Shown: in pieces, positions 3,137 through 29,645 of the stretch
Layout of the letters: each line of letters opens with the position of its first letter
How positions within the stretch are numbered: the first letter of the stretch is position 1
From: an uncultured Anaerolineales bacterium
Lineage (GTDB): Bacteria > Chloroflexota > Anaerolineae > B4-G1 > SLSP01
Length of the DNA: 32,759 nt
Direction: 5' to 3'
Assembly (NCBI GenBank): GCA_964501335.1
Contig: CAZCTC010000010.1
Location: forward strand, 128,001-160,759
The notes under the pieces: generated by a model
Told to the model about the DNA's origin: nothing
Seen by the model: only the letters and a program-made list of their open reading frames with translations
Database searches by the model: none
Translations under genes and position numbers: made by a program

Positions 3137-3664
3137 ATGGCAGTGAATTGGGGGGTGTTGGCTTTTTTTCTGGCGGCACTCGCGGGGGTGCTGTTCTATT
3201 TTGCCCGGCGGCTACGCCGCAGTTTGGGAATTCCTCAGGGGCAGGTGATTGAAGCCGATACCGATGGTTGGGAGATGCTGGCGCAACCTCTTGCCGCGCC
3301 TTCCTTAAAGCTGGTAGGACGACCGGATTATGTCGTCAATGACGGGGTGGATGTGATCCCCATTGGAATTAAATCCCACGCGGCTCCGCGGCAGCCCTAT
3401 CCCTCCCATGTGCTGCAACTGGCGGCCTATTGCGCTTTGGTGACGGAGACGTATGGGCGACGGCCGGGTTATGGGATTCTGCACTATGCCGATCGGACGT
3501 TTGAGATCCCTTATACGGAAGTCCTGGAGACCCAATTGCGGGAGACGTTGCTGGAGATGCGGGAGAATATGGCCGCCGGGGGCGGGACGCGCAACCATCG
3601 CGATGCGGGCCGCTGTCAGGAGTGCCGTTATCGTTCCAAGTGCCCGGATGTGCTGGAGAAGTGA
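3137..3664 (+). CDS. Cas4-like PD-(D/E)XK nuclease family protein (DUF83-like) with an N-terminal transmembrane anchor
   Basis: 175 aa. N-terminal hydrophobic helix (VLAFFLAALAGVLFYF). GRPDYVV (motif II Asp). IPIGIKS at the motif III position. QLAAYCAL (Q-x-x-x-Y). C-terminal C-x2-C-x5-C (CQECRYRSKC), typical of the Cas4/RecB-family Fe-S nuclease domain. Confidence 0.6.
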   Translation: MAVNWGVLAFFLAALAGVLFYFARRLRRSLGIPQGQVIEADTDGWEMLAQPLAAPSLKLVGRPDYVVNDGVDVIPIGIKSHAAPRQPYPSHVLQLAAYCALVTETYGRRPGYGILHYADRTFEIPYTEVLETQLRETLLEMRENMAAGGGTRNHRDAGRCQECRYRSKCPDVLEK

Positions 3665-3800
3665 AAAAGAGATTTCACCGCAGAGCACGCGGAGATCGCA
3701 GAGAGAGAAGGGAGGAGATTTTCTTTAAATTCTTCTCTGTGCCCTCTGCGCCTCGGCGGTGAGTCTTCGGGATGGGCTATTTTCAGGACAGATAACCATG
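3665..3800 (+). repeat. Copy A of the 3' module of the composite intergenic repeat (gagatttcacc...ttctttaaattcttctctgtg...ggtgagtctt...gggctattttcaggacaga-N-ccATG). Its terminal ATG is the start codon of the downstream kinase.
   Basis: About 80% identical by eye over about 130 bp to 10064-10196. Shared boxes are gagatttcacc, ctttaaattcttctctgtg, ggtgagtctt and ctattttcaggacaga. Confidence 0.7.
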
Positions 3801-4923: not shown

Positions 4924-5182
4924 GAAAAAAAGCCTGTGTTTGGGCGCGCCCAAACATAAATAAAAAACGCAGTACCGCATAATTCACTCAGAACACACCA
5001 CCGAGACGCAGAGGCCGCGGAGAAAAAGCTTAAAAAGCCTCTTTTATCTCTCTCGGCGATCTCGGCGCCTGTTTACAACATCTTCGATCCGCGGTGTATT
5101 TCTTTCGGTTTGCCGTTGAGTTACTTTTGCGGTATTGCTAAAAAATTCTTTCCTTCGATCCAGCGCGTCGTATTTTACCATG
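4924..5182 (+). repeat. Degenerate or rearranged copy C of the composite intergenic repeat. It contains a loop-less 20-bp perfect palindrome TGTTTGGGCGCGCCCAAACA (4936-4956), cacaccaccgagacgcagagg and tccagcgcgtcgtat boxes, and ends in ccATG (5180).
   Basis: Boxes shared with the copies at 9938-10196 and 3665-3800 but in a different order. The palindrome sits where other copies have the hairpin. Confidence 0.5.
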
Positions 5183-5210
5183 AAGAGTTTTGCGCGGGGC
5201 ATAATATCTG

Positions 5211-6653
5211 ATGAAAAGAAAAGAGTGGTTACATTGGGGAGTCTGGTTGCTCACCGCGGCGGCGCTGCTGGGCTATTGGCTGCTGCCGATTTCGGGCGGG
5301 GTGGTGGTCTGGCAGGGTGAATCGGCTCCCTGGCCCTGGCCGTTGATCCAGCTGGAGCCTTCCATGCCACGGGCCGGGCAGCCGTTGACGATCCGGGTGA
5401 CCGATGAACATCCCCGGGTGCATGTTGCGTTGACGATCAATGGGGCCGCGCAGCCGGTATCCATGTGGGGCAAGGTTGCCGAAGGGCGCTGGGGTTGGAC
5501 CTGGGAGGTGATCGCGCCGGCGGCTTCGAGTTATGAGGTGGTTTTTTATTCCGATTGTCATGAGGGCTGTGTGGAGCGGGGCCGGGCGCAGATTGGGACC
5601 GTGGCTACCCCGACCGTTCCGGTGACGCCGACCAAGCTTTGCGTGGTCTTTCCCAATCCAGAACGGGACTGGCACAATCGCAGCGGGTGGGGTGTCGAAG
5701 TGGCTTATGTTAAGCTGGCCGATGATCCCTATTGGGGGCTGGATGGGCTGGCTCAACGGGTCTATCAGGATCAGGCTGCCGGGTTGCGGGTGTTGGTGCG
5801 GGTTGATTATGCCCAGGGGCAGAGTCTGCCCGGTGAAGCGAATTATCTGGAGCTGGATGATTATCTGGCTTATATGCGGCGGCTGGCCCGGGATCAACGG
5901 TTCCGCGATGGGGTGTATGGTTACATAATCGGGGCGGATCTGAATGTCGGACAGACGGGGGTGTCGCCGGCCTGGTATGCGCGGCTTTTTAACGGCTATG
6001 GCGAGGCGGTTTCGCATTCCGACAATGTGGTGCAGACGGTACGGGCGGAGAATCCGACGGTGCGGTTGCTGGTGGGGCCGGTGCGTCCCTGGTGTATGGA
6101 TCGAGACGGCGAGAAGCGGGCTGCGATCAATGTGCCCTGGTTGAATTATATGAATACGCTGGCGGCGGCGTTGGATGAGGGGGGGCAGGCGAAAGCGGGC
6201 GCGGGGATTGCGCTGGCGAGGCCGGACGGCTTTGATATCCAGGCGCCGGGGCATCCGGAGAGTCCGGAGATGCGAGGGCGCTCCCGTGCGGAGGAGCCGC
6301 GGTTGGATCTGGCCCGGGCGGAATGGAAGGGGGCCCAGGCGGGGTTCGGGGTCTATCGGGACTGGCTGACCATTATCAATTCCTATGAGGGATTGGCCGG
6401 GCTGCCGGTCTATATTATTTCGACCAATACCTATGATCGGGAGTCGAATATCCCGCCGGCGCAGAATTATCCTCAGGGGTGGTTGAGTACGGCGGCGGCG
6501 GTGATCGATGGCGAGCCGCAGGTGCAGGCGTTGTGCTGGTTTATGGACGATTTCCCGGATACGGAGGAGTGGGATTATTTCAGTCTGACCCGTCATCCGG
6601 GGCGGTTGGTGGATGCGGCGGAAGAGTTCGATCGTTTACTGCGCGGGCAGTGA
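5211..6653 (+). CDS. Hypothetical secreted or membrane-anchored protein, Trp-rich. Possibly a TIM-barrel glycoside-hydrolase-like fold (weak).
   Basis: 480-aa ORF with an N-terminal signal-anchor-like segment (WLHWGVWLLTAAALLGYWLL). No family motif I can name. The overlapping antisense ORF 5229-6596 is Arg/Pro-rich and judged spurious. Confidence 0.6.
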   Translation: MKRKEWLHWGVWLLTAAALLGYWLLPISGGVVVWQGESAPWPWPLIQLEPSMPRAGQPLTIRVTDEHPRVHVALTINGAAQPVSMWGKVAEGRWGWTWEVIAPAASSYEVVFYSDCHEGCVERGRAQIGTVATPTVPVTPTKLCVVFPNPERDWHNRSGWGVEVAYVKLADDPYWGLDGLAQRVYQDQAAGLRVLVRVDYAQGQSLPGEANYLELDDYLAYMRRLARDQRFRDGVYGYIIGADLNVGQTGVSPAWYARLFNGYGEAVSHSDNVVQTVRAENPTVRLLVGPVRPWCMDRDGEKRAAINVPWLNYMNTLAAALDEGGQAKAGAGIALARPDGFDIQAPGHPESPEMRGRSRAEEPRLDLARAEWKGAQAGFGVYRDWLTIINSYEGLAGLPVYIISTNTYDRESNIPPAQNYPQGWLSTAAAVIDGEPQVQALCWFMDDFPDTEEWDYFSLTRHPGRLVDAAEEFDRLLRGQ

Positions 6654-7449: not shown

Positions 7450-8385
7450 ATGTCTCAGACCAACAATCAGGCAGGTGGAACTCCCCCTGTGGTGTTGCCT
7501 CCCGTTGCTACTTCGGGGGGAGCGGGATGGCGACAGCTTGAACGTCTCTACAAGTTGGCCGTCGTTATTTTGGCGGGGTTTATCGTCATGGGGGTTCTTT
7601 TTTTTATTGCCCGGTCGGCTATCTACAAAGTCCATGCTTATGAACGAGGGCTGCATTTGCGCGGCGGGCGGTTTATGAGTGTGGATGATCCGGGCTGGCA
7701 TATGCAGATCCCGCTGGTGGATACGGTGGTGATCGTAAAGGTCAATGAGCGGTTGGGCTATGTCGAACGGATCGCGGCGATGACGTCGGACGATGTAACG
7801 ATGAATGTCTCGTTGCAATACACCTATCGCGTCACCGATCCTCAACGGTTTGCACTGGAAGTGGACGATCCGGAGCGGATTGTTTTTGAGTTTGTGCAGG
7901 GCAAGCTGCGGGATGTGGTCAATACCAAGCCGATGACTGAGGTGATGCACAGTCGGGCGGCGATGAATCAAGAGGTTATGGCTTCCCTGCTGGAAAAAGA
8001 GGAGCAGTATGGGGTGAAGTTTATCACCGTACAGATTCAGAGTGCCTCGCCGCCGGATGAGGTTGTTGCGGCGATCAAGGATCGGATGGTCGCGGTGCAA
8101 CGTCAGGAGCAGGCGCAGGCTGAGGCGGCGCAACGGCGGACGCTGGCGGATGCCGATTTCTATGCGGCGCAGAAGAAGGCGGAAGGTGAAGCCTATCAGA
8201 TTACCCGGCTGGCGGAGGCGCAGCAGAAAGCGGTCCATACGTTGTTGCAGGAACTGGCGGCGCAGGGGACGCTGGGGGAGAAATATATCCAGGTGTTGCT
8301 GGCGCAGGAATTGAAAGAGAACAGCAAGTGGGTTTTGACTGGTGAGAGTACGCCGTGGGTGGATTTGGGAACGTCCAAGCCCTAG
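7450..8385 (+). CDS. SPFH / band-7 domain protein (stomatin, prohibitin, HflK/C-like) with an N-terminal TM and a C-terminal coiled-coil
   Basis: 311 aa. SD aaggagg 7428-7434. TM helix VVILAGFIVMGVLFFIA. Core SPFH region (PLVDTVVIVKVNERLGYV...ALEVDDPERI...). Ala/Gln/Glu-rich coiled-coil tail. Confidence 0.85.
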   Translation: MSQTNNQAGGTPPVVLPPVATSGGAGWRQLERLYKLAVVILAGFIVMGVLFFIARSAIYKVHAYERGLHLRGGRFMSVDDPGWHMQIPLVDTVVIVKVNERLGYVERIAAMTSDDVTMNVSLQYTYRVTDPQRFALEVDDPERIVFEFVQGKLRDVVNTKPMTEVMHSRAAMNQEVMASLLEKEEQYGVKFITVQIQSASPPDEVVAAIKDRMVAVQRQEQAQAEAAQRRTLADADFYAAQKKAEGEAYQITRLAEAQQKAVHTLLQELAAQGTLGEKYIQVLLAQELKENSKWVLTGESTPWVDLGTSKP

Positions 8386-8387
8386 GG

Positions 8388-8502
8388 CTGGAAGGGCGGA
8401 AGATTGGAGGATTGGAAGAATGGAAGTACAACGTGATTTTCGCCGGCCTTCTGAGGCCGGCGAAAATCAAATAAAAAGATTTCTTCTCGGGAGGATAAAG
8501 TC
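8388..8502 (+). repeat. Intergenic repeat copy made of five 8-bp periodic GGAAG/GGAGG units (8388-8427), then the hairpin GATTTTCGCCGGCC-TTCTGA-GGCCGGCGAAAATC (8435-8468), then the A-rich box aaataaaaagatttcttctcggg
   Basis: The loop TTCTGA and the right flank (aaa-A-rich-tttcttctc-gg) match the other hairpin copies. Periodicity read directly. Confidence 0.6.
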
Positions 8503-8985
8503 ATGAGAAGATCATGGTGGCTTGTGTTGGGTGGCGTGGTGGTTTTGTTGGGGTATGCCGCAGTGCTGTCGGGGACAACGATTTTTCCGATGATGCAGGA
8601 AGATCTCACCACTCCACGTGTCTATGCCTATCGGGACTGGCAGAGCCAGGGGATTCTGTTGCAGAAAGGCGATTGGGTGCAGGTGCGGGCTCAGGGGCGC
8701 TGGCTCTATACCCCGAAGGAGTATAACGGGCCGGAAGGCCATCGGCGTTATCTGGCTCCGGATTTCTATCCGCTGCCGGGGGTGGCGGGAGGAGCGTTGA
8801 TCGGGCGGATCGGGGAAGAGGGAACACCCTTTTATGTGGGGCGGTATGTCAATTTCCGGGTCGATCAAGAGGGCATGTTCTATTTGCGGATCGATGACGA
8901 TATTTTGAGCGATAACGACGGCTATGTGACGGTGGTGGTGACCGTCACGCCGGCGGAAGAAACAACGAAAGGAGAAGATCAATGA
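8503..8985 (+). CDS. Hypothetical small secreted protein (signal peptide; possibly beta-sandwich or lectin-like)
   Basis: 160 aa. SD gggaggat. N-terminal hydrophobic segment WWLVLGGVVVLLGYAAV. No recognisable catalytic motif. Confidence 0.5.
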   Translation: MRRSWWLVLGGVVVLLGYAAVLSGTTIFPMMQEDLTTPRVYAYRDWQSQGILLQKGDWVQVRAQGRWLYTPKEYNGPEGHRRYLAPDFYPLPGVAGGALIGRIGEEGTPFYVGRYVNFRVDQEGMFYLRIDDDILSDNDGYVTVVVTVTPAEETTKGEDQ

Positions 8986-9557
8986 AAGCTTTCCAGGAAT
9001 TTGGGCTGCAATGGATTCGGGCGATGACCTATCCATTGGTTCTGGGGGGGCTTTTTATGGGGTGGTACATGGGGTATTACTGGATGTTGTTTGTGACGGA
9101 AGGTCTGGGGGTGCCCTGGGATACGTCGGTTGTGCTGCCTCCGGTGGGATACTGGCAGCGTACTTTGAATGATTTCTTTTCGGCCGGTGTGGGAGCCTAT
9201 CTGCCGGCTGTGATTTTCCTGGCCGTGAATATCTTTCTCTTTGTCCGTGCCGTGATCCATACGAAGAATTTGCGAATGTCGGCGCTTGTTTTTGGGGTGG
9301 TCAATTTGATCGCGGTCGTTGTCTGGGTGGTAATTGCGAGCCCGATCCGAGATTCTATGGTGATTCCTGCCCATCTTACGGTGGATGATTGGGCTTACTG
9401 GGGGGATTTTAGAAGGGAGTGGCCGTTGCTGGGGCTCACTTTTGGGATTTTGGTGAGTCTTTTTTCCTTTTTGGTTTATTGGGGCCGGCGTCAGGGTGGA
9501 GGTGGCGGTTCGGTTGTCGGCATTCCTCATACGTCGCAGCCCGTTCTTTACTCATAA
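8982..9557 (+). CDS. Hypothetical integral membrane protein (4-5 TM)
   Basis: 191 aa. Start ATGA overlaps the upstream stop (translational coupling). SD aaaggagaag. Several hydrophobic helices. Gly-rich C-terminus. Confidence 0.55.
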   Translation: MKAFQEFGLQWIRAMTYPLVLGGLFMGWYMGYYWMLFVTEGLGVPWDTSVVLPPVGYWQRTLNDFFSAGVGAYLPAVIFLAVNIFLFVRAVIHTKNLRMSALVFGVVNLIAVVVWVVIASPIRDSMVIPAHLTVDDWAYWGDFRREWPLLGLTFGILVSLFSFLVYWGRRQGGGGGSVVGIPHTSQPVLYS

Positions 9558-9624
9558 AGACGGAGGGATTTTCCGATTGGTGGTGGATCTTTTCCGTGAC
9601 AGAAGCTCATGCAGGGCGCTGCCC

Positions 9625-9838
9625 CCATATCAGGCAACTTAAGGCGATTCATCAGTAGATCCCAGCTTTGGGACATCCCGCAAAGAGTATTTTCCCTGTA
9701 AGGTGCGACGCGCGGGAGGGGGGAGAGAGTTTTTTTATTCATTTTTTCGCGCGCCGTCTGCGGCGCGCGAAAAAATGGGCTTTCTTTCCCTTTTTCCGGG
9801 CGATTGCTGTTGCAAATGGTTTAAGTTGCCTGATATGG
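9625..9838 (-). repeat. Minus-oriented copy of the hairpin repeat (hairpin CATTTTTTCGCGCGCC-GTCTGC-GGCGCGCGAAAAAATG at 9739-9776; CGCGTCG and TTTGCGGGAtG boxes) bounded by 18-bp perfect terminal inverted repeats ccatatcaggcaacttaa (9625-9642) and ttaagttgcctgatatgg (9821-9838). MITE-like.
   Basis: The inverted repeats are an exact reverse complement. The internal boxes align with copy 9938-10196 when reverse-complemented. Confidence 0.65.
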
Positions 9839-9937
9839 CGCTGTCCCCTGTTTTGTTGTTAAGCAGCGACGCGATTCGATAGGAAGCGTTGCATGGGATC
9901 GCTGCGAGCGATGCGGGAGGGAGAGGGGGGAAGCGTA

Positions 9938-10196
9938 TGTCGCCAGGGCGGCTCTGGAAAAGCCTATGTTTTTGCGCGCATTCTGATGCGCGCAAAAACA
10001 TAAACAAAAAAATTCTCTCTCCCGGTCCAGCGCGTCGTATCTGGCCGGGAAAAGATCATTTGCGGGACGCTAAAAGAGATTTCACCACAGAGGCGCAGAG
10101 AGCACGGAGAAGAAGAGAGGAGATTTTTCTTTAAATTCTTCTCTGTGTTTCCGTGGTGAGTCTTTTCTGGGCCTATTTTCAGGACAGAAGGCCATG
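9938..10196 (+). repeat. Full-length copy B of the composite intergenic repeat. Order: left box tgtcgccagggcggctctggaaaagcc; hairpin TATGTTTTTGCGCGCA-TTCTGA-TGCGCGCAAAAACATA (9965-10002); A-rich tract; tccagcgcgtcgtat; second small hairpin cccggtccag...ctggccggg; catttgcgggacgc; gagatttcacc module; ctttaaattcttctctgtg; ggtgagtctt; ctattttcaggacagaaggccATG.
   Basis: Every module recurs in the other copies (3665-3800, 4924-5182, 8388-8502, 9625-9838, 26341-26813, 29515-29645, 31025-31125, 32500-32759). Confidence 0.75.
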
Positions 10197-10325
10197 CAGT
10201 GGCGGCACCCCGAAAAAAGGTGAAATACCCCGAGGTTTTTTTGCATCCTCTGGATTTGGATTATACTTAAGCTGTTTCCTCTCTGATTGATGTTCCATAT
10301 TTCATTTTGCCTAAGGAGATGCAGG

Positions 10326-12253: not shown

Positions 12254-13594
12254 ATGAGGCGAAGTACCGCTGGAATCGATTTGGAGTTTGACGTTCCCAG
12301 GATTTTTGCCATGTTGCGGCGCCGGCGAAAAGAACGTCCTGTCCGGCGCCGCGCCTGTCTGGAACTGGAACGAAATGTCGGCGGTCCGCTCTGGCAACTG
12401 GTGGTGCTGGGGTTGATCACCAGTGCTTTGTTAAAGGAGCCCTTTTTCTTAGGGCTCACTTTTTGTATGGCGGCTTTTTTGGGGGTTGCCTGGCTGTGGG
12501 ACCATTTCAGCCTGACGGGGGTGCGTTATCGGCGTAAATTTAGTGAGGTGCGCGCTTTTCAGGGGGAAACGGTTATCTTGACTCTGGAAGTGGGCAATCA
12601 AAAGTGGTTGCCGGTGAGCTGGCTGGAGGTGGGCGACATTTTCCCCGGAGAACTGCCGGTGGCCGGCGAACGGGTGATCATCTCTTCATCGACCAATCAG
12701 GTCGAATTCACCACGTTCTGGCATCCGGCCGCTTATCAGAGTTTGACCCGGGTGATGGAAGTGCCCTGTATGCAGCGGGGGTATCATTTTTACGGGCCGG
12801 CAACGGTCCGTACCGGCGACGGCTTCGGCTTTTTCAGTCGGAAGTTGACTTTGCCGGAGCGGGATTTGCTGATCGTCTATCCCCGGCTCTATTCGGCGAC
12901 GGAACTCGATCTGCCTTCGAAGAATCCGTTTGGGGAGCGGCGGACGCTGTTCAAACTTTTTGAGGACCCGTTGCGTCCGGCGGGCATTCGCGACTGGCAG
13001 TTCGGCGATGGGATGCGGCGGGTGCACTGGAAGGCGACCGCGCGTTACGAGCGGTTGCTCAGCCGGATTTACGAGCCGAGCGAGGAGCCGCAGGTGATGA
13101 TTTTGTTGAATGTCTCCACGTTGCCGCGTTATTGGGAGGGGATTGTTCGAGAGTTGTTCGAGCGCACGGTCAGTGTGGCGGGCAGTCTGGCCGCGTTGGC
13201 CATCGAGGAGCGGTTGTCGGTCGGGCTGGCGGCCAATGCTTACTGGCCGGGGAGCGATCAGCGATTGGAGCTCTTCCCGGGGCGGCGGCAGGAGCAGTTG
13301 TTGCATATTTTGGAGTTGCTGGCGGCCGTGACGCCTTATGCCAGTGAATCTTTTGAATCTGTGTTGTTGCAGGTGGCTCCCCGATTGCCCTGGGGAGCCA
13401 CTTTGCTGGTCGTTTCGGCGGTTGCGACCCCCGAATTGTGGGAAACGCTGGTCGATCTGGATCGAGCCGGGCGACAGGTCACGCTCTTCACCCTGGTTGA
13501 GACGCCGCCCGAATTCCCGCCGATCGGCATTCCGGTTTATCATCTACCGCAGTTGATCGACGATCTGGTTATTCCTCAAAAGGTAGCGGAGTAG
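12254..13594 (+). CDS. DUF58 domain protein (vWA-like; usual partner of MoxR ATPases)
   Basis: N-terminal TM. DUF58 signature region IRDWQFGDGMRRVHWKATARYERLLSRIYEPSEEPQVMILLNVS (D-x-R-x-x-x-W-K-A-x-A-R...L-x-x-x-E, then a run of hydrophobics). Confidence 0.8.
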   Translation: MRRSTAGIDLEFDVPRIFAMLRRRRKERPVRRRACLELERNVGGPLWQLVVLGLITSALLKEPFFLGLTFCMAAFLGVAWLWDHFSLTGVRYRRKFSEVRAFQGETVILTLEVGNQKWLPVSWLEVGDIFPGELPVAGERVIISSSTNQVEFTTFWHPAAYQSLTRVMEVPCMQRGYHFYGPATVRTGDGFGFFSRKLTLPERDLLIVYPRLYSATELDLPSKNPFGERRTLFKLFEDPLRPAGIRDWQFGDGMRRVHWKATARYERLLSRIYEPSEEPQVMILLNVSTLPRYWEGIVRELFERTVSVAGSLAALAIEERLSVGLAANAYWPGSDQRLELFPGRRQEQLLHILELLAAVTPYASESFESVLLQVAPRLPWGATLLVVSAVATPELWETLVDLDRAGRQVTLFTLVETPPEFPPIGIPVYHLPQLIDDLVIPQKVAE

Positions 13595-13596
13595 GT

Positions 13597-15063
13597 ATGC
13601 AGCGCGGTGGTTTGTTTCTGGATTTACGGCGCAATTTACTTTATCTGTGCCTGGTAGGAATCGATTCCGCCTGGTTTGCTCTGCTGCTGCCTTTGTTGGG
13701 GGTGCAGTCGACCTTATCCTGGTCGCCGTTGATCTTGTGGGGTATGTTGGCGGTGGGGATGTGCGGCTGTCTGGTGGTGCTGGAGCTTTTCAATCGGATC
13801 GGTTTGGGGAGGCCCTGGTATCCGCTGGCCGTGGCGGCTCTGGTCCTCTTGACGATTGTGGGGCTGATGCGGGTGGTGATTTACAACGGCTGGCCCTTTT
13901 GGAGTTGGGGCTGGGGGGAGCAGATCCTGCTCAGCTTTTTGCTGTTTGAAACCTGGCCGCGGCCGGAGCTGGCGCTGGCTGCGACCGGCTTTTTTGTCTG
14001 GCAGCGGGCTACCTGGGCGACGCGTCGATCGCTGGATTGGCGTGATGTCAGCAGCAATTTCTGGTTGGGCCTCTTCTTTTTGGGCTGCGGCGGGCTCTTT
14101 TGGGAGTTGTGGTTGAAGCAGCCGGCGCCGTTGGCGTTTGTCTGGGGCTATTTTGGATTGGGGATGGTGGCGTTGGCGTTGACGCGGGCCCATACGGCGC
14201 CGTTGCTGGTGCGGAGCATGGGGGCAGAGCTTTCGCCGGTGCGGCTGGCTCAACTGGGGATGACGGTGGGCCTGACCTTGCTGATCGGCGGGTTGAGCTG
14301 GTGGGGGCTTTCACAGCCTTTAATAGGGTTTGTGGCCTGGCTGGGGCCGTTGTGGAACTTTCTCTTTGTGTTGGTGGAAGTGTTGGTGGTATTGTTGATT
14401 TTTGTCGGCTGGCGGTTCTGGCAGTTTATTTCGGAGCTGTTGAAGGGGGAGCTGCTGCCGGCCTTGCAAAATCTGGAGGATATCTCTCGCTCGATTCAGC
14501 AGCTGGGAGAACAATTGGCCCAGCAGGCCGGATTGAATTTTGTCTGGCCTCCCTGGCTCGGGCTGGTTTTGCGTATTGGTGTGGCATTGTTGATTTTGTT
14601 GCCGGGTTTGTGGCTGGTGCTGGTCTATTTGGGGATCATTCAGCCGCCGCGGCGCCGGGAGGACGACGAGTATGCGAATCGATTGTCGGCGGAGCGGTTG
14701 TTGTGGGATGGATTGGATTCGCTGCGCGATCTGGGCCGGTTGATGCGCCGGTATGGGTTCAGCCGGCAGATGCTGGCGGCGATTTCGGTGCAGAATCTCT
14801 ATGCCAATGTGTGTCGTTTGGGGCGGCGGCAGGGGCGGCCGCGGCGGCCGTCGCAGCCCCCGGATGCTTATTTGCCGCAGCTGGTGGCGGCTTTTGAGGG
14901 GCTGGATAGTCAGTTGTCCCGGATCACGGAGGCCTATATGCAGGTGCATTACGGGGATCGGTCGGTTACGAATGAGGAACTGGCCCGGCTGCGGAAGGAT
15001 TATGCGGAGGTGCGGGCGCAGGCGGGGCGGAAGCGGCGCCTGGACGTGAAACGTAAAACGTAA
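13597..15063 (+). CDS. Polytopic membrane protein with a C-terminal DUF4129-like domain (the third usual member of MoxR/DUF58 operons)
   Basis: About 10 hydrophobic helices. C-terminal region GRRQGRPRRPSQPPDAYLPQLVAAFEGLDSQLSRITEAYMQVHYGDRSVTNEELARLRKDY matches the DUF4129 pattern (R..G.P...S.TP.EY......L.......Y...RYG). Confidence 0.7.
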   Translation: MQRGGLFLDLRRNLLYLCLVGIDSAWFALLLPLLGVQSTLSWSPLILWGMLAVGMCGCLVVLELFNRIGLGRPWYPLAVAALVLLTIVGLMRVVIYNGWPFWSWGWGEQILLSFLLFETWPRPELALAATGFFVWQRATWATRRSLDWRDVSSNFWLGLFFLGCGGLFWELWLKQPAPLAFVWGYFGLGMVALALTRAHTAPLLVRSMGAELSPVRLAQLGMTVGLTLLIGGLSWWGLSQPLIGFVAWLGPLWNFLFVLVEVLVVLLIFVGWRFWQFISELLKGELLPALQNLEDISRSIQQLGEQLAQQAGLNFVWPPWLGLVLRIGVALLILLPGLWLVLVYLGIIQPPRRREDDEYANRLSAERLLWDGLDSLRDLGRLMRRYGFSRQMLAAISVQNLYANVCRLGRRQGRPRRPSQPPDAYLPQLVAAFEGLDSQLSRITEAYMQVHYGDRSVTNEELARLRKDYAEVRAQAGRKRRLDVKRKT

Positions 15064-15250: not shown

Positions 15251-15288
15251 GGGGAATTTGCACGCCTTCTGAGGCGTGCAAATTCCCC
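15251..15288 (+). repeat. Perfect 16-bp hairpin GGGGAATTTGCACGCC-TTCTGA-GGCGTGCAAATTCCCC, a member of the TTCTGA-loop hairpin family, in the gap between the DUF4129 gene and moxR
   Basis: Exact inverted repeat with the family loop TTCTGA. Preceded by an A/G-rich tract (aaaaaaggggaagggg). No 3' T-tract. Confidence 0.7.
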
Positions 15289-15369: not shown

Positions 15370-16308
15370 ATGGAGTTCTCAGAGCTGGCGAAAGCGATTA
15401 AACAGAATGTCGGCCGGGTGATCATCGGCAAGGCGGATGTGGTTGAGATGTTGTTGATTGCCCTGTTGACTGAGGGACATGTGCTGTTGGAGGATGTTCC
15501 AGGGATCGGCAAAACGACGCTGGCCAAGGCTTTGGCACGGAGTCTGGATGCTTCTTTTGCGCGCATCCAGTTCACGCCGGATCTGCTGCCGGGCGATGTC
15601 ACAGGGTTGAGCATTTACAATCAGAAAGAGCGGGAGTTTGAGTTTCACGCCGGGCCGGTTTTCCGTCAACTGCTGTTGGCCGATGAAATCAACCGGGCGA
15701 CGCCGCGGACCCAATCCAGCCTGCTGGAGGCCATGCAGGAGCAGCAGGTGACGGTGGACGGCAAGACCTATGCGTTGCCGCGGCCCTTTCTGGTCATTGC
15801 GACGCAGAATCCGATTGAGCTGGAGGGGACCTTTCCCTTGCCGGAGGCGCAGCTGGACCGCTTTTTGATGCAGGTGCGGTTGGGGTATCCCAGCGAAGCT
15901 GAGGAAGAGGAAATTCTCTTGCAATACGAGCGTCAGGATCCGCTGGTGGAGCTGCGGCCGGTGGTAACGATGGCCGAGATTCAGGAATTGCAGCGAAAAG
16001 TGCGGGAGATCCATGTCAATGGGGATGTGCGGCGGTATATCGTGCAGGTGGTGCGGACGACGCGGGAACATGAGGCGGTGGCGCTGGGCGGTTCGCCGCG
16101 GGGGACGCTGGCGCTCTATCGGTCAAGCCAGGCGCTGGCGGCGTTGCGGGGACGGGATTATGTCACGCCGGGCGATGTGCAGCAGCTCTGTCCGGCGATT
16201 TTAACGCATCGCGTGCATATTCGGCCGCAGGTGCGGTTACGAGGGCGTACGCCGGCGCAAGTAGTGGCGGAAATCATTGAAGCGGTGCCGGTACCGGTAG
16301 TTGAATAA
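15370..16308 (+). CDS. MoxR-family AAA+ ATPase
   Basis: SD aaggagg 15357-15363. Walker A GHVLLEDVPGIGKTTLAKALA. Walker B LLADEINRA. Characteristic MoxR length (312 aa) and C-terminal region (YVTPGDVQQL). Confidence 0.95.
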   Translation: MEFSELAKAIKQNVGRVIIGKADVVEMLLIALLTEGHVLLEDVPGIGKTTLAKALARSLDASFARIQFTPDLLPGDVTGLSIYNQKEREFEFHAGPVFRQLLLADEINRATPRTQSSLLEAMQEQQVTVDGKTYALPRPFLVIATQNPIELEGTFPLPEAQLDRFLMQVRLGYPSEAEEEEILLQYERQDPLVELRPVVTMAEIQELQRKVREIHVNGDVRRYIVQVVRTTREHEAVALGGSPRGTLALYRSSQALAALRGRDYVTPGDVQQLCPAILTHRVHIRPQVRLRGRTPAQVVAEIIEAVPVPVVE

Positions 16309-16312
16309 GGCT

Positions 16313-18343
16313 ATGATGGAGATTTCGGGTTATAAAATTCGCGTGAAAATAGCGCGGCTGGCCTTAAGCGGGCAATTTATCTGCCTTACTGGAATCCTGG
16401 TCATTTATTTTGGGCTGGCGTTGGGCTATAGAATTGCGGGGCCTTTTAATCGCCCTGTATGGATGAATTTGTATTTATTGCTGGCGCTGGATATCTGTTC
16501 TTTTATTTCCGTTTTCTGGTTGAGAAGATCGTTGACTCAGGCGGTGTGGGGGTATGCCTGGAGCAATCTCATTTATGTGGTTTTGATGCTGGGCTATCGG
16601 CTGCTCGATTTCAACTCTCCGAAAATCGATCCTCCTTATATTATCTTTTTATTGCATTTGAATATCTTTTCGTTGGGGATTATATTTGGTTTTCGTCCGG
16701 CGTTTAAATATGCCCTGGCGACCGTCGTCGTATTTTTAGTGGTGGGAATTTTCTATACCGAACGGCTGTCGATTGTGGTGGGAATTTTGTTTGCTTTGCT
16801 TATGACCTTTCCTCCTTTGGGGATCGATAAGTTAATGGCGGAGTTGCGGCAAAGCCAGGAAAAATTAAGTATCATTTTTCGAGAATCTCCGGATGTGATT
16901 TTAGTGTTGGATCCGGCGACAGGGAGAATTTGGGAGGGGAATGCCGCTGTCAAATGGGTGTTAGGTTACGTGGAAGAAGAGCTGCGTGGGGAACCTTTCA
17001 GTAAATTGTATGAATCGGATTCGCCGTTGGGAAAGGAGAAACTCTGGTATGTGGAGGCTCAGCGGCGGGATACCCACGGTTCCCAGTTCTTTTTGAAAGC
17101 CGATGGAACGCGCTGTCCGATGGATTGGACGGCGGCGCGCATTCCCTGGGATGAGGATTCGGCGATCCTGATTACGTTACGGGATGTGACGGAACGTTAT
17201 CAGGCGGAGGTGGAGCGAGCTCGTTTTACGGCCCAGTTGGGGGCCGCGGCCGAACTGGCGGCCCGGATCAATGCTTATCTGGATGCCGATCAGTTGTTGC
17301 CGATGGTGGTGGCTCAGGTGCAATCCCGCCTGGATGTGGCCCGGGCGGCGATCTATTTGTTGAATGAGGATTTGCAGGCGGCGCTTTCTCCTGCTGTTAA
17401 AGAGAGTGTGAGCCTGGGGGCATTGATGGCCTCGTCCAGCGTTATTGCCCGGGTGGTTCAGAACCGGGAGATGGTCAGGATTGACGATCTTCAGGAGTTG
17501 TCGTCAGAAGATCTTCCGTTTTTGCAGGCGGGGATGCAGACTCAACTGGTCGTTCCTTTGATTGTGCAGGATTGTCTGTTGGGCGTGATGGATCTTCAGG
17601 ATCTGCGGCCGGGGCGTTTTCATACCATCGATCTGGATGTCTTTTTCACGCTGGGGGTTCAGATCGCGACATCGCTTGAGAATGCGCGGCTCTTTGGGGA
17701 ATTGCAGAAGACGGCCCGTAATTTGCAGGGCCTTTCGCATCGTCTGGTGGCGGTGCAGGAGCAGGAGCGGCGGAACATTGCCTGTGAACTGCACGATGAG
17801 ATCGGGCAGATGTTGACGGCATTGAAGTTAATGCTGGATATGAGCAGCGGCGCCGGGGATTCGCAACAGGAGGCGCGGGATATGGTGCGCGATCTGTTGG
17901 AGCGGGTGCGCAACCTTTCGTTGGAGTTGCGGCCGCCGATGCTGGACGATTTAGGGATTTTGCCGGCGCTGGTCTGGCTTTTCAACCGTTATACCACGCA
18001 GACCCATATCAAAGTGAGTTTTCGCCATTCCGGGTTGGAGCGGCGTTTTACCCCGCAGATTGAGACGGCGGCCTATCGAGTGATCCAGGAATCGTTGACC
18101 AATGTCGCCCGCCATGCTCGTGTGCAAGAGGTCGAGGTGCGGTTGTGGGCGGATGAGGCGCAATTGCAGGTGCAGGTGGAAGATAACGGTCAGGGATTTG
18201 ATCTGGACGAAGTGCTGAGCCAGGCGGGTTCCAATGGATTATCGGGGATGCGGGAACGGGTTATGTTGTTGGGCGGAGAACTGACGATCGATTCCCGGCC
18301 GGGGGCGGGGACTTCGCTGGTGGCGGAGTTGCCCTTGCAATGA
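16313..18343 (+). CDS. Sensor histidine kinase, NarL-partner type (polytopic membrane domain - PAS - GAF - HisKA_3 - HATPase_c). A TTG at 16301 overlapping the moxR stop is an alternative start.
   Basis: HisKA_3 H-box CELHDEIGQMLTALK. HATPase N/G boxes (LTNVARHA, DNGQGFD, GLSGMRERVMLLGG). GAF block before LENARLFGELQ. AT-richer N-terminal membrane domain with a PVWMNLYLL motif. Confidence 0.9.
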   Translation: MMEISGYKIRVKIARLALSGQFICLTGILVIYFGLALGYRIAGPFNRPVWMNLYLLLALDICSFISVFWLRRSLTQAVWGYAWSNLIYVVLMLGYRLLDFNSPKIDPPYIIFLLHLNIFSLGIIFGFRPAFKYALATVVVFLVVGIFYTERLSIVVGILFALLMTFPPLGIDKLMAELRQSQEKLSIIFRESPDVILVLDPATGRIWEGNAAVKWVLGYVEEELRGEPFSKLYESDSPLGKEKLWYVEAQRRDTHGSQFFLKADGTRCPMDWTAARIPWDEDSAILITLRDVTERYQAEVERARFTAQLGAAAELAARINAYLDADQLLPMVVAQVQSRLDVARAAIYLLNEDLQAALSPAVKESVSLGALMASSSVIARVVQNREMVRIDDLQELSSEDLPFLQAGMQTQLVVPLIVQDCLLGVMDLQDLRPGRFHTIDLDVFFTLGVQIATSLENARLFGELQKTARNLQGLSHRLVAVQEQERRNIACELHDEIGQMLTALKLMLDMSSGAGDSQQEARDMVRDLLERVRNLSLELRPPMLDDLGILPALVWLFNRYTTQTHIKVSFRHSGLERRFTPQIETAAYRVIQESLTNVARHARVQEVEVRLWADEAQLQVQVEDNGQGFDLDEVLSQAGSNGLSGMRERVMLLGGELTIDSRPGAGTSLVAELPLQ

Positions 18344-20409
18344 AGACATCTAAGGAAAGCTATTTAGAAATCGATTATTCTGAACAGCTTGCCCGGGAGA
18401 AGATTGCCAGGGTGATTTTGCTTAGCAATGTTATTGCCCTTGGAGCCCTTTTTATTTTCAATCTGGTTAGATTAATCTTAATGTTAACGGAAGAGCCGGG
18501 GTATCAACCCGCCTGGTATTCATTCTTTAGTATGGCGGCGTTGGTGGGGGGCGGGATTGTTGCGTTGGGTTGGATCAGGAGATCGCTTTTTGCGGGAATG
18601 GTGTTTTACGCCTGGTTTGCATTGTTTTGTGTCCTGGTAATGATTGTGGGAGCCTTTATATGGGGAGGTCTGCAACGTTACCCTTTAATAGTGTTAGTTT
18701 TTTATATAGGGATTTTATCTCTCAGTGTTATTGTAGGATATAAGACAGCTTTACCTTATGCAATTGTTGTGTCTTTGGTAATGGTGGTCTGTGGGGTAAT
18801 TTTTAATGATGTGCTTTTTTCAGTACCTTTGGTCGTTACCTCTTATTTAATGGTTTTGCCAGCCTTATTCATTGATTATATGACCGATAGTATAAGACAG
18901 AGTGAACAACGGTTTAAAATCCTTTTTCAGGAATCGCCGGATTTGATTGTGGTCGTTGAACGAGAAACGGGGATTGTGTTACATGTCAATTCGGCGTTGG
19001 AACGTTTTACAGGGTATTTTCCTGAAATGTTGATAGGCAAATCCTTTTTTGATGTTTTTCCTCAAGAAGTGTTTCCTGACTTAACTGAAATTTCAGAGGG
19101 TCAACCCCGAGCCGAATTTCGTGCTGTTGCAGATCGAGCTTTTTATCGGTTGGATGGGACTCTTATTTTTATGGATTTGAGTATAGCTTCAATAGTTTGG
19201 ATGAAGAGATCTGCTTTGTTGGTGGTTTTAAGAGACGTTACTGGGCGCCATCGCGCAGAGGAAGACCGTCAACATTTTACGAAACAATTGCGAGTGGCCG
19301 CAGAGTTGACTGGCCAGATTAATACCTGTCTGAACTCTGAAGCCTTAACTTTCATGATAGAAAATCAAATGGAGCAACTTTTGAATTTGAGTCGGGTGAG
19401 AATTTTTCTCTTTGATGAAAAAAGTCAAACCCTTGTTCGATATGCAGGTGGCTCGGAAATTGTGAAATCTTATCATTTGCAGGATCCCTACCTAGTGGCA
19501 CAAGCTGCCCATGATCTCATTCTGGTTCAGGCCCTTAAAGAATCAAAGATGGATGATGGGAGGAGATTGGATTCTGAGGGGGATATGGGAGGGCAGGTAG
19601 CAGTACCTTTGGTTTCACATGGAAAACTTTTGGGAGTGTTAGACATTCAAGATATCAGTCCAAATCGATTTCATCCCGGTGATCTGGATATTTTCTATAC
19701 TTTGGCAGGGCAAATTGCTGTAGCTTTGGAAAATGCTCGTTTATTTGGAGACTTGCAGAAGACGGCGATGCATTTACAGGGGCTTTCTTTGCGGTTGCTT
19801 GAGGTTCAGGAGCAGGAACGTCGGAATATTGCGTGTGAGTTGCATGATGAGATGGGCCAAATGTTAACTGCTATCAAGTTGCTTTTGGAAATGAAGAAGT
19901 CCAAATTGGGGAGGGCGGCAGATAATTCGGATCAGGAAATTGGGGATCTTGTGTCGGATTTGTTGAATCGAATTCGGAATCTCTCTTTGCAATTGCGACC
20001 GCCGATGCTCGATGATCTGGGGATTTTACCAACTTTAGTATGGTTGTTTAATCGTTATAGCCATCAAACTCAGATAAAGGTTAATTTTAAGCATGTGGGA
20101 TTGGAACGCCGTTTTTCTTCTCAGGTAGAGACAGTTATCTATCGTGTAATTCAAGAATCTTTAACTAATGTAGCACGTTACGCTATGGTGGATAATGTCG
20201 ACGTTTATATCTGGGGGGATGAATCAATTTTACGGTTACAGGTCGACGATAATGGAGTCGGGTTTGATTTGGATAAGGTTTCAGGTCAATTGAGCTCTAA
20301 CGGCCTTTCTGGCATGCAGGAACGGGTTACTTTACTGGGGGGACAATTCTTGATAGATTCTAAACCAAATTTTGGAACCCATTTGATGGCGGAAATTCCC
20401 CTGCAATAA
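18340..20409 (+). CDS. Sensor histidine kinase, tandem paralog of 16313-18343 (membrane domain - PAS - GAF - HisKA_3 - HATPase_c), distinctly AT-richer than its neighbour
   Basis: ATGA start/stop overlap with the upstream kinase. H-box CELHDEMGQMLTAIK. ENARLFGDLQKTAMHLQGL is nearly identical to the paralog. Membrane-domain motif EPGYQPAWYSFFS. Confidence 0.9.
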   Translation: MKTSKESYLEIDYSEQLAREKIARVILLSNVIALGALFIFNLVRLILMLTEEPGYQPAWYSFFSMAALVGGGIVALGWIRRSLFAGMVFYAWFALFCVLVMIVGAFIWGGLQRYPLIVLVFYIGILSLSVIVGYKTALPYAIVVSLVMVVCGVIFNDVLFSVPLVVTSYLMVLPALFIDYMTDSIRQSEQRFKILFQESPDLIVVVERETGIVLHVNSALERFTGYFPEMLIGKSFFDVFPQEVFPDLTEISEGQPRAEFRAVADRAFYRLDGTLIFMDLSIASIVWMKRSALLVVLRDVTGRHRAEEDRQHFTKQLRVAAELTGQINTCLNSEALTFMIENQMEQLLNLSRVRIFLFDEKSQTLVRYAGGSEIVKSYHLQDPYLVAQAAHDLILVQALKESKMDDGRRLDSEGDMGGQVAVPLVSHGKLLGVLDIQDISPNRFHPGDLDIFYTLAGQIAVALENARLFGDLQKTAMHLQGLSLRLLEVQEQERRNIACELHDEMGQMLTAIKLLLEMKKSKLGRAADNSDQEIGDLVSDLLNRIRNLSLQLRPPMLDDLGILPTLVWLFNRYSHQTQIKVNFKHVGLERRFSSQVETVIYRVIQESLTNVARYAMVDNVDVYIWGDESILRLQVDDNGVGFDLDKVSGQLSSNGLSGMQERVTLLGGQFLIDSKPNFGTHLMAEIPLQ

Positions 20410-20575
20410 ATTTTTTATATTACCCCCTGGTTTTTTTGAGACTGTTTTTTTGTTTTTCTGGTTTTTAAGAGGAAAATGCTATAATGTTTGTATCGCTCCC
20501 TGGGGCGTTTCTATCCTGTATGCTCCCAGCCAGGGATGGCGGCATCACCACAACCTGTTTCCAAGGAGGCCAGTT

Positions 20576-20875
20576 ATGGCACACGCAGCGATTAGTTGGA
20601 TTTCGGGAAGGGTTTTTCTTTTTAAAGATTTTGTGGGGATGGTCGAGAAAAACGTTCAGGAAAACGGATGGGATGGTTTTTTCAAGGAACAGGGCGAAGT
20701 GTTTATGAAGGAATTCGGCAAAGCGCCCGATTGGACAGAGGATGAACGGAAAGTTTTTGCCACCGCTTTTGAGAACGGTAGTTTGCGGAAAGTGGTGGAT
20801 CTGTGGTGGGGCAGCTATGTGGAGGCCCGGGAAGCGGGGCTTTTAAAGTCGGCCGCAGAATATTGGGAATTTTAA
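20576..20875 (+). CDS. Small hypothetical protein X1 (99 aa) carrying one copy of an unrecognised ~85-aa domain (motif F-x-A/T-A-F-x-N-x-x-L-R-x-V-V-x-x-W-W-x-x-Y-x-E)
   Basis: SD aaggagg 20563-20569, 6 nt before ATG 20576. Paralogous to both halves of 21104-21661 (VFATAFENGSLRKVVDLWWGSYVEAREAG vs VTFVACFKNLRLREVVVQWWHAYDEGRKKG and ATFTAAFYNSHLRDVVENWWFVYEEE). Confidence 0.55.
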   Translation: MAHAAISWISGRVFLFKDFVGMVEKNVQENGWDGFFKEQGEVFMKEFGKAPDWTEDERKVFATAFENGSLRKVVDLWWGSYVEAREAGLLKSAAEYWEF

Positions 20876-20904
20876 CTCTTAACTTTATTTTTCAGAAGCG
20901 AGGG

Positions 20905-20942
20905 AAGCCCTTCTCGATAGTCTTATCGAGAAGGGCTTTTTG
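20905..20942 (+). terminator. Rho-independent terminator: 15-bp stem AAGCCCTTCTCGATA-gtct-TATCGAGAAGGGCTT followed by TTTTG
   Basis: Perfect inverted repeat plus a 3' T-run, 30 bp after the stop of 20576-20875. Confidence 0.7.
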
Positions 20943-20987
20943 TTGGTAGGGGGAATGGTTAGCATGTTCAAACATTTATGAGCTTGT

Positions 20988-21016
20988 TTGATTTTTTCTC
21001 GAAAACGGCATACAAT
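20988..21016 (+). promoter_or_regulatory. Sigma70-like promoter candidate TTGATT-17 bp-TACAAT upstream of 21104-21661
   Basis: -35 TTGATT 20988-20993, 17-nt spacer, -10 TACAAT 21011-21016, about 90 nt upstream of ATG 21104, in an AT-rich gap. Confidence 0.45.
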
Positions 21017-21103
21017 GGTATTGGTATGCCCTGGCATATTTCATTTTGCTTGGCCAACTTCCAGGGAAGGGGCGAAGCTGTTGTTAAAGTAAGGAGAAGT
21101 GTC

Positions 21104-21661
21104 ATGATAAATCAAATAAAAACTTTACCCCTTGAAGATTATGAAATACATGTGGTTGGGTATCACGATATTTTACGTCTTACGGGATTGATCTTTTTGG
21201 AGCGAGGTTTTGTTGCAAGGGTAGATGCCCGCGGGATCGATGCTGTTCTCGCTGAAATGGGCTCTGTCGATCTGGATGTTGAACAGGCGGTTACCTTTGT
21301 CGCCTGTTTCAAGAATCTTCGCTTGCGTGAAGTTGTGGTGCAGTGGTGGCATGCCTATGATGAGGGGCGGAAAAAGGGTGAGATCCCTCAGGCGGAACCT
21401 TATTGGACTCCTAATAGACCCACCGGTTATCAGGATATTGTACGGCTTTCGGGGTTGGTTTTCTTTCAACAGAATTTTATAGCCAGGGTGGATGCGCTGG
21501 GGCTGGATGCGATGATTGCGATGGAAGCCGTTTATGGTGATTTAACAGCTTTACAACGTGCTACTTTTACGGCAGCTTTCTATAATTCTCATCTGCGGGA
21601 TGTGGTAGAGAACTGGTGGTTTGTTTATGAAGAGGAACGGTCTTTGAACCATATTCCTTAA
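21104..21661 (+). CDS. Hypothetical protein X2 (185 aa) made of two tandem copies of the same ~85-aa WW-motif domain found in 20576-20875
   Basis: SD aaggag 21091-21096 before ATG 21104. The internal halves align with each other (YHDILRLTGLIFLERGFVARVDARGIDAVL vs YQDIVRLSGLVFFQQNFIARVDALGLDAMI; ...VVVQWWHAYDEG vs ...VVENWWFVYEEE). Confidence 0.55.
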   Translation: MINQIKTLPLEDYEIHVVGYHDILRLTGLIFLERGFVARVDARGIDAVLAEMGSVDLDVEQAVTFVACFKNLRLREVVVQWWHAYDEGRKKGEIPQAEPYWTPNRPTGYQDIVRLSGLVFFQQNFIARVDALGLDAMIAMEAVYGDLTALQRATFTAAFYNSHLRDVVENWWFVYEEERSLNHIP

Positions 21662-21754
21662 ACCTGAATAGTTTTGGCTAATGCTTAGCAATGATCGAAG
21701 CCAGGTGATGTTGGCTGTTTTGATTGATCGAGATTCAATTTCGAACTTCGAGAG

Positions 21755-21797
21755 TGTTCCGGGATTTTGAGCCCGGAACATTCTTATTTTTGTTTTT
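21755..21797 (+). terminator. Rho-independent terminator: stem TGTTCCGGG-attttgag-CCCGGAACA followed by TTCTTATTTTTGTTTTTG
   Basis: 9-bp GC stem plus a long T-rich tail, about 95 bp downstream of the 21661 stop. Confidence 0.65.
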
Positions 21798-21853
21798 GAT
21801 TTTAATGGGTCAGGTATAATTAGGAGAAAAATGGGCCCTGGAAGATTTCGCAT

Positions 21854-26340: not shown

Positions 26341-26813
26341 GTGTCGCCGGGGCAGCTCTGGAAAGGGCTATGTTTTCGTGCTTAGCCCTCACCCCAACCC
26401 CTCCCCATGCAGTAGTACCGGTGTAGCGCGCTTTCGGGTGATTCCTGGTGAAGATGCGCGGCCGGCATGGAGGTGAGGGGCTTAAGATGACGTCGCCGGG
26501 GCGGCTCTGGAAAGGGCTATGTTTTCGTGCTTAGCCCTCACCCCAACCCCTCCCCATGCAGTAGTACCGGTGTAGCGCGCTTTCGGGTGATTCCTGGTGA
26601 AGATGCGCGGCCGGCATGGAGGTGAGGGGCTTAAGATGACGTCGCCGGGGCGGCTCTGGAAAGGGCTATGTTTTCGTGCGCATCAGAATGCGCACGAAAA
26701 CATCAACAAAAAACTCTCTCCCGATCCTGCGCGGCGTAGCTTAGGGGGAAAGTATCATTTGCGGGACGCCACAGGGTTGACCTGTTTTCAGGACCGTCGT
26801 GAGGTGATTTATG
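26341..26813 (+). repeat. Copy D of the composite repeat. It contains a 148-bp unit tandemly duplicated 2.3 times (26345-26640). Each complete unit splits the family hairpin with a 111-bp insert bounded by imperfect inverted repeats (ttagccctcacc ... ggtgaggggcttaa). The intact hairpin TATGTTTTCGTGCGCA-TCAGAA-TGCGCACGAAAACAT lies at 26667-26703, followed by the cctgcgcggcgta and catttgcgggacgc boxes and ttttcaggac...ATG.
   Basis: Units 26345-26492 and 26493-26640 are identical except for one base (gcagctctgg vs gcggctctgg). The third unit continues into the intact hairpin. All boxes match the other copies. Confidence 0.7.
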
Positions 26814-29449: not shown

Positions 29450-29463
29450 ATCAATTTTTCGTG

Positions 29464-29501
29464 GCCGCCTTCTAAGGCGACCACGAAAAATCAAAAAAGT
29501 T
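29464..29501 (+). repeat. Hairpin family member ATTTTTCGTGGCCGCC-TTCTAA-GGCGACCACGAAAAAT (one C.A mismatch; loop variant TTCTAA) directly after the methyltransferase stop
   Basis: Inverted repeat read from the sequence with the same T5-stem-loop-stem-A5 layout as the other copies. It sits 35 bp upstream of the next hairpin. Confidence 0.6.
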
Positions 29502-29514: not shown

Positions 29515-29645
29515 GTTGGTTGGGAGAAAAATCTATTTTTTCGCGCGCCGTCTGCGGCGCGCGAAAAAATAAACAAAAAAATTTCCCCCATCCAGCGTGT
29601 CGTTTCGAGCCGAACAAAAGCCTTTTGCGGGACGCTAAAATGCTA
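29515..29645 (+). repeat. Repeat copy with hairpin TATTTTTTCGCGCGCC-GTCTGC-GGCGCGCGAAAAAATA (29534-29571), then aaacaaaaaaatttccccc, tccagcgtgtcgt and ttttgcgggacgctaaaa boxes, in the convergent gap between the methyltransferase gene and obg
   Basis: The hairpin core is identical to the one at 9741-9774. Flank boxes match copy B. Confidence 0.7.

Follow-up and report, generated by a model that had tools for sequence, protein, structure and literature searches.

A MITE-like 214-bp unit with perfect 18-bp terminal inverted repeats and a nested hairpin repeat in an uncultured Anaerolineales bacterium

The window, as we call the whole 32.8-kb stretch of DNA that was analyzed, includes an intergenic gap of approximately 770 bp (9558-10325) located between a 191-aa ORF of unassigned function (8982-9557, + strand) and a gene coding for an S9-family peptidase, probably translated from the ATG at 10326, which follows an AAGGAG box. 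Three small repeats are found in this gap: a framed, non-coding unit of 214 bp (9625-9838), a copy of an abundant hairpin repeat family (9956-10076) and a palindromic repeat (10076-10164). The unit is bounded by a perfect 18-nt inverted pair, as claimed in the first-pass annotation. A repeat search of the 32.8-kb window located both arms, which are 100% complementary and lie 178 nt apart, the right one (TTAAGTTGCCTGATATGG) being the exact reverse complement of the left one (CCATATCAGGCAACTTAA). When up to three mismatches were allowed, the 18-mer was found at the two arm sites only in the window and at no site in 100 dinucleotide-preserving shuffles, and even at five mismatches these ends recurred on no further copy in the window, in agreement with the earlier observation. 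The chance expectation, as an arithmetic estimate, is about 3e-4 perfect 18-nt inverted pairs (spacing within 600 nt) per 32.8 kb. The coding capacity of the unit is limited to ORFs of 48-90 aa, and no gene was called inside it in the gene tables of other assemblies.

The features of the unit and the copies of the hairpin repeat family are listed in Table 1. The family core occupies the middle 118 nt of the unit, and about 43 nt at the left and 53 nt at the right, arms included, were found only in the two framed copies described below; besides the arms, the element-specific sequence amounts to approximately 60 nt. This composition fits the earlier proposal that a separate carrier element took up the hairpin module. 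The contents previously described for the interior are all present, namely the hairpin, the CGCGTCG box (as its reverse complement, CGACGCG, at 9708-9714) and the TTTGCGGGATG box (as its reverse complement, CATCCCGCAAA, at 9673-9683). The hairpin coordinates given before, 9739-9776, were off by one and are corrected in Table 1.

Table 1. Features of the framed unit, its flanks, and copies of the hairpin repeat family
Feature	Position	Strand	Remarks
Left flanking direct repeat CGCTGCCC, candidate target-site duplication	9617-9624		7/8 vs 9839-9846; abuts left arm
Left terminal inverted repeat CCATATCAGGCAACTTAA	9625-9642	+	Identical in second copy, L002 5775-5792
Unit-specific left segment	9643-9667		Aligns to second framed copy only (~80%), not to other family copies
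Small hairpin TCCCA-GCTT-TGGGA	9660-9673		Window only; last 6 nt inside family core; not conserved in L002
Nested ~120-nt intergenic repeat copy	9668-9785	-	nhmmer profile match 9785-9668, E=3e-30
Parts of the nested repeat: hairpin, A-run, CTCTCCC, CGCGTCG box, TTTGCGGGA box	within 9668-9785	-	Family alignment
Central perfect hairpin, 17-bp arms, 4-nt loop TCTG	9740-9777		Repeat search
T-rich run after central hairpin, terminator-like	9780-9799	+ strand reading	
Unit-specific right segment	9786-9820		Aligns to second framed copy only (~79-81%)
Small stem TTGC-loop-GCAA	9804-9815		4-bp stem in both copies, loops differ
Right terminal inverted repeat TTAAGTTGCCTGATATGG	9821-9838	-	Identical in second copy, L002 5973-5990
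Right flanking direct repeat CGCTGTCC, candidate target-site duplication	9839-9846		Abuts right arm
Hairpin family copies, window (n=7)	5140-5206 (partial), 9668-9785(-), 9956-10076, 26658-26775, 29525-29642, 31030-31146, 32658-32758(-)		
Hairpin family copies, 16 kb of L060 (n=6)	2559-2677, 6240-6365, 8370-8490, 8626-8744, 10140-10258, 13548-13660(-)		

In the window, the + strand of the unit is co-directional with both neighboring genes. Between the 191-aa and peptidase genes, terminator prediction found a single site, namely the nested hairpin with its T-rich tail; as it happens, the unit here provides the 191-aa gene with its first downstream hairpin of terminator-like form. The palindromic repeat found in the same gap is about 90 nt long, has the arrangement TCACC(A/G)CAGAG...GCAGAGAG...TTTCTTTAAATTCTTCTCTGTG...GGTGA and is present once more in the window, at 3670-3765; it adjoins the peptidase gene and a histidine-kinase gene, just upstream of each. 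A shorter motif, GGGC(C)TATTTTCAGGACAGA(N4-5)CCATG, occurs three times in the window, at 3774-3800 (+), 10169-10198 (+) and 32503-32536 (-), and each copy lies a short distance 5' of a gene that is read in the same direction. It may represent a promoter, with TATTTT resembling a -10 box, or a leader motif. The ATG at 10195, which belongs to one of its copies, opens a 9-codon mini-ORF only.

A scan for the exact 18-mer in a collection with one genome per prokaryotic species returned 16 loci, about the chance expectation. One of them, L002 (CAZHTS010000137.1, from a MAG labelled uncultured Anaerolineaceae), has both arms, 198 nt apart, and includes a second full copy of the unit (5775-5990, 216 bp, 82.6% identity). 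The first-pass annotation had considered the case that no further genomic copies exist, which is contradicted by this second complete copy at a non-orthologous locus. The L002 inverted repeats are perfect over 20 nt, and at the left end the conservation between both copies runs to 24 of 24 nt (CCATATCAGGCAACTTAAGGCGAT). A comparison of the window and L002 sequences showed identity at 36/36 positions in the arms, 139/181 in the interior, and 11/40 and 8/40 in the adjacent flanks. Identity at the repeat tips falls from 100% to 20-28%, and the boundaries of similarity coincide exactly with the tips of the inverted repeats. The two copies differ by 38 substitutions (28 transitions and 10 others) and by indels over four alignment columns (1 nt and 3 nt), and these differences follow no reading-frame pattern. 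Two further contigs carry an identical version of the second locus: L060, a JGI contig of 42.5 kb, and L062, a Logan contig from run SRR6476076. The unit sits there between the genes for a 613/810-aa protein and a 1131-aa secreted glycosidase-/lectin-like protein, and a hybrid-cluster protein gene is a further neighbor. None of the window genes is present at the second locus and, since the second-locus neighbors have no counterpart in the window, the two sites are not orthologous.

Besides L002, searches for the exact 18-mer in species-representative genomes, JGI metagenome contigs and viral contigs returned single, chance-level matches only, extending at most 24 nt save for one of 42 nt. The latter, in Rhizobium (L010), was considered as a further copy and rejected as a chance match inside a coding gene. 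Approximate ends, with up to five mismatches, were searched in 95 kb of DNA from the lineage and relatives, and nothing above chance was found besides the two known copies. The dispersal observed is two copies at unrelated loci, as seen by exact-match scans, which overlook diverged copies, in collections that are non-exhaustive (the JGI contig bearing the unit was absent from the metagenome scan results). Both copies are probably present in one genome or species: the window genes and the L002 locus are found in the same run, SRR6476076, at 100% identity, interleaved repeat subfamilies are common to the window and the L060/L002 locus, and the window and the second-locus DNA correlate in tetranucleotide usage (0.92-0.94) just as strongly as one half of the window does with the other.

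The unit in L060 is inverted relative to its co-directional flanking genes, i.e., its orientation is opposite to that in the window. It is located directly after the intrinsic terminator of the upstream gene (2470-2491, followed by TTTGTTT) and before the promoter-like site (2734-2761) of the glycosidase-like gene, 75 nt upstream of the gene for a large secreted carbohydrate-binding protein. Lying between a terminator and a promoter-like site, this copy is therefore in neutral spacer DNA and plays no evident role there. A mobile element behaves in this way, landing in spacer DNA in either orientation, whereas a strand-specific RNA gene or a dedicated promoter switch does not.

Where the earlier reading saw no obvious duplication in the flanks of the unit, imperfect direct repeats directly abut both ends, and this is the case at both loci. 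The window unit is flanked by CGCTGCCC and CGCTGTCC, which are identical at 7/8 positions, and the L002 unit by GGGATAAGC and GGGGTAAAC, identical at 7/9. The sequence of the flanking repeats differs between the loci, as expected of duplicated target DNA. All three mismatches (3/17 positions, both loci) are transitions, which is consistent with decay of the flanking repeats. The repeats are imperfect and of unequal length (8 vs 9 bp). Among 200,000 positions drawn at random from the window, 0.18% had flanking repeats of at least 8 bp with at most one mismatch, and 0.48% satisfied a broader criterion that also admits 9 bp with two mismatches; these frequencies give an indication and no exact value, since the criterion was set after seeing the sequences. 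Even so, independent flanking repeats at both loci are hard to attribute to chance.

The hairpin repeat family to which the core of the unit belongs is about 120 nt long, intergenic and lineage-specific, with a density of about one copy per 3-5 kb. Its copies sit upstream of genes, in co-directional orientation, and at the 3' ends of genes; a T-run comes after the hairpin when a copy is read in reverse. Alignment of 12 copies showed that 10 of the 17 pairs of the hairpin changed on both sides, with no G-T pairs and no one-sided changes. The 4-nt loop alternates between TCTG and CAGA, a flip also found between the two framed copies (CAGA in the second). The Watson-Crick-only covariation together with the loop flips suggests upkeep of the palindromes by an active mechanism at the DNA level rather than by RNA selection. 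The cores of the two framed units are 74% identical to each other and up to 80% identical to unframed copies; either the framed copies may be about as old as the spread of the family, or the cores may exchange sequence.

Other repeats were observed in the same DNA. Solo perfect hairpins are located just past gene ends in the window (8434-8469, 15251-15288 and 29454-29491, the last one also readable with a 2-nt loop) and in L060 (2470-2491 and 6413-6444). They share the family loop TCTG except for that at L060 2470-2491 (TCCG). These hairpins are probably the usual terminators of the organism, and possibly the source of the family hairpin. In a divergent intergenic region, a hairpin-family copy is directly adjoined by a tandem duplication of 149 bp with 99% identity (26343-26491 and 26492-26640). 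The Logan contigs break in repeats: L001 ends in a hairpin, L062 starts in a hairpin and L066 starts in the third palindromic repeat.

Neither the 32.8-kb window nor the 16 kb of L060 was found to carry transposase, integrase or invertase/recombinase genes; the genes present code for sensor kinases, a response regulator, MoxR/DUF58, CorA, Obg, an MFS transporter and similar proteins. A 175-aa ORF of the PD-(D/E)XK nuclease superfamily (3137-3664) is located in the window between two histidine-kinase genes and has no visible link to the repeats. Around 18000-22500 of the window, the GC content is about 0.43 vs 0.57, and PAS/GAF sensor histidine kinase paralogues are found at 16301-18343, 18340-20409 and 21854-23659; the low-GC stretch may be horizontally acquired or fast-evolving. 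The GC skew is strongly positive across the whole window (+0.05 to +0.30 per kb), and the + strand carries most genes. The names attached to homologues place the lineage in the Chloroflexota, with an Anaerolineae/Caldilineae-like affinity. The protein database contains no close relative: the nearest homologues of the flanking genes share 46% (191-aa gene), 67% (S9 peptidase) and 59% (L002 glycosidase-like) protein identity, and synteny is lost. The loci of these homologues in more distant Chloroflexota include neither the unit nor the hairpin repeat family. The absence of the unit beside the distant homologues indicates that the element is lineage-specific.

With moderate confidence, we interpret 9625-9838 as a discrete non-coding, non-autonomous, MITE-like element with a nested hairpin repeat. 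Its perfect terminal inverted repeats measure 18-20 bp, and the whole unit occurs at two intergenic loci that are unrelated and at which its orientation differs. A transposase of the DDE type, encoded elsewhere, would recognize the two identical ends and excise or copy the unit; upon its insertion between genes, a staggered cut would duplicate 8-9 bp of the target. The hairpin repeat would already have been inside the carrier before the two copies separated. What stands of the MITE reading first proposed is reinforced by the second copy with the same ends, the boundaries located exactly at the tips and the imperfect 8-9-bp flanking repeats, and weakened by the number of copies, two, and by the failure to find a matching insertion sequence. 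The unit has the architecture of a MITE, its dispersal goes part of the way, and a cognate transposase was not found. None of the 18-mer loci, the window or L060 includes an insertion sequence with matching ends, and a plasmid collection used as a source of insertion-sequence ends yielded hairpin-like chance matches only. Resemblances of the ends to those of IS1 (common AACTTA), IS10 (CTGATGAATC) and IS26 (CTGTTGCAAA) were considered and rejected; they are short, misplaced or not conserved in the second copy, and all were ascribed to chance. Retrons, attC and dif-like sites were also discarded, since the core motifs do not match and a gene for a reverse transcriptase is absent.

Prokaryotic MITEs are shorter than 500 bp, have inverted repeats of 4-30 bp and direct repeats that fade with age, and occur in one to hundreds of copies (PMC10969869). 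Very stable hairpin folds of their transcripts and nesting with other repeats have been described, and small bacterial repeats were reported to insert into one another (PMC10969869). QMITE2 of Coxiella burnetii has direct repeats of 7-9 bp, inverted repeats of 23-29 bp, a core of 113-145 bp and a predicted fold energy of -113, and MITEAba12 of Acinetobacter is found in 1-22 copies per genome (PMC10969869). The window unit is like QMITE2 and MITEAba12 in being non-coding, shorter than 500 bp and intergenic, with inverted repeats of about 20 bp, apparently decayed direct repeats within the 7-9-bp range and a possibly low copy number; it also resembles QMITE2 in the stability of its predicted fold (-113 vs -110.6 kcal/mol for the window unit). 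It shares no sequence similarity with them, however, has no identified cognate insertion sequence, is known from two copies only, is not AT-rich and has as its interior a copy of another abundant repeat.

Other families offer partial parallels. The pneumococcal BOX, RUP and SPRITE elements are small repeat families that also pile up and nest in the same intergenic regions, and SPRITE resembles a Rho-independent terminator (PMC10969869). They belong to another phylum, however, and are unrelated in sequence, and the hairpin family described here is distinguished by its strict Watson-Crick covariation with loop flips. The Correia elements of Neisseria and the ERIC sequences of enterobacteria are bounded by inverted repeats, 100-150 bp in length, intergenic and co-transcribed with their neighbors, and fold into long hairpins. 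They are present in hundreds of copies, with characteristic ends and targets (TA for Correia). The window unit is likewise an inverted-repeat-bounded intergenic element that is predicted to fold into a long hairpin, but its copy number is apparently low and the candidate duplication is of 8-9 bp.

One property of the unit deserves separate consideration. The arms are identical at both loci although the interior diverged by 21% and the flanking repeats by 3/17 positions. Under neutral decay, the chance of one 18-nt arm staying identical is about 0.79^18 = 0.014 by an arithmetic estimate that has to be read with the ascertainment in mind: it was its perfection that drew attention to the window pair, and an exact match that led to L002. 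This accounts for part of the effect but leaves the identity of the second arm unexplained. Something besides past transposition seems to preserve the arms. The lineages may have kept their competence for transposition until recent times, although imperfect duplications would then be odd; the arms may have been homogenized like the central palindrome; or they may be under selection.

The last possibility leads to an alternative that we consider unlikely, although not negligible, namely that the element is functional, possibly domesticated, that selection keeps the arms as the closing stem of a structured RNA or as a pair of protein-binding sites, and that the copies are paralogous functional loci. 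The identity of the arms (36/36, plus six more bases at the left) vs 77% in the interior exceeds the neutral-decay prediction for an old insertion. As an argument for selection this is tempered by the way in which the second copy was found, since retrieval by an exact arm match biases the sample towards conserved arms. The predicted fold of the + strand RNA is very stable (-110.6 kcal/mol, z = -10.8, compared with -88.7 kcal/mol predicted for the - strand), with many G-U pairs in the + strand model only. Such stability would be expected of any DNA that combines perfect terminal repeats with a perfect 17-bp internal palindrome. The consensus of the two sequences includes three compensatory pairs, but 1.3-1.4 are expected (P about 0.14, two sequences), and preservation of the interior structure, taken as the fraction of touched pairs that were kept, was not significant under a transition-aware null (P = 0.03-0.76, depending on strand and reference) in a two-sequence comparison of low power. 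The covariation that appeared significant under a uniform substitution null was an artefact of the 28:10 transition bias and was gone once the bias was modeled, and sequence identity without covariation gives an RNA stem no support. A search of the whole window against Rfam 15 returned no matches at the gathering score, and at E<=5 the matches were weak, generic hairpin ones, to miRNA precursor models and to one truncated RNase P model. Conservation ends exactly at the stem tips, beyond which no promoter is conserved; relative to its neighbors, the unit is sense in the window and antisense in L060; and on the window + strand the terminator-like hairpin precedes the right arm, such that an RNA clamp would form only after read-through.

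A related proposal, which we regard as quite improbable, is that the unit with its undecayed 18-24-nt ends is a working cassette, i.e., a portable terminator or regulatory switch in which the hairpin module is placed between protein recognition sites or is clamped as RNA. The protein could be a recombinase flipping the cassette or a regulator derived from a transposase. The contrast between the conserved ends and the decayed flanks and interior is the sole feature that could point to function over parasitism.

A non-transpositional origin, by ectopic recombination or gene conversion among hairpin repeats, with the inverted ends as a by-product of palindrome-generating replication errors, is also highly improbable. 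The density of the family is very high, at the value given above, and the loop flips and strictly Watson-Crick stems point to active processing of palindromes at the DNA level. The framed cores, moreover, are not mutual closest relatives (74% vs up to 80%), which is compatible with conversion. However, such a process would not put breakpoints precisely at the ends of an 18-bp repeat external to the family core, nor would it produce site-specific flanking direct repeats at both loci.

Inversion of the 178-bp interior by a site-specific recombinase acting at the repeats, switching an outward-reading signal on and off, is in our judgment highly improbable. The geometry resembles that of an invertible promoter (inverton) in that perfect inverted repeats of 18-20 bp surround a segment shorter than 200 bp, the repeat sequence is conserved between loci and, at one of the two loci, L060, the unit lies a short distance upstream of a gene for a secreted protein; the orientation of the interior relative to the downstream gene is also opposite at the two loci. 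Against this, each locus showed a single orientation in five independent assemblies (window, L001, L060, L061/L002 and L062), the genes in the 32.8-kb window and the 16 kb of L060 include no invertase or recombinase, no sigma-70-like promoter was predicted inside the unit at either locus, the promoter-like site of the glycosidase-like gene being outside, and inversion leaves the flanking direct repeats unexplained. A merely local origin of the 18-mer pair, as an inverted repeat that arose by chance or in a one-off event, would agree with the window having no other copy, but is practically impossible in view of the second complete copy with the same ends at an unrelated locus and a chance expectation of about 3e-4.

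Elements of this kind are well known in bacteria, and the MITE-like interpretation is not conceptually new. The context outweighs the frame in interest, with three small repeats in one gap and a hairpin family whose palindromes seem to be maintained at the DNA level. Recognition of these repeats is useful for annotation because they break short-read assemblies, as in the three Logan contigs. If the unit is a MITE, it would be the first described example for a poorly known lineage of uncultured Chloroflexota, and it would be a marker for an as-yet-unseen transposase with an 8-9-bp target duplication.
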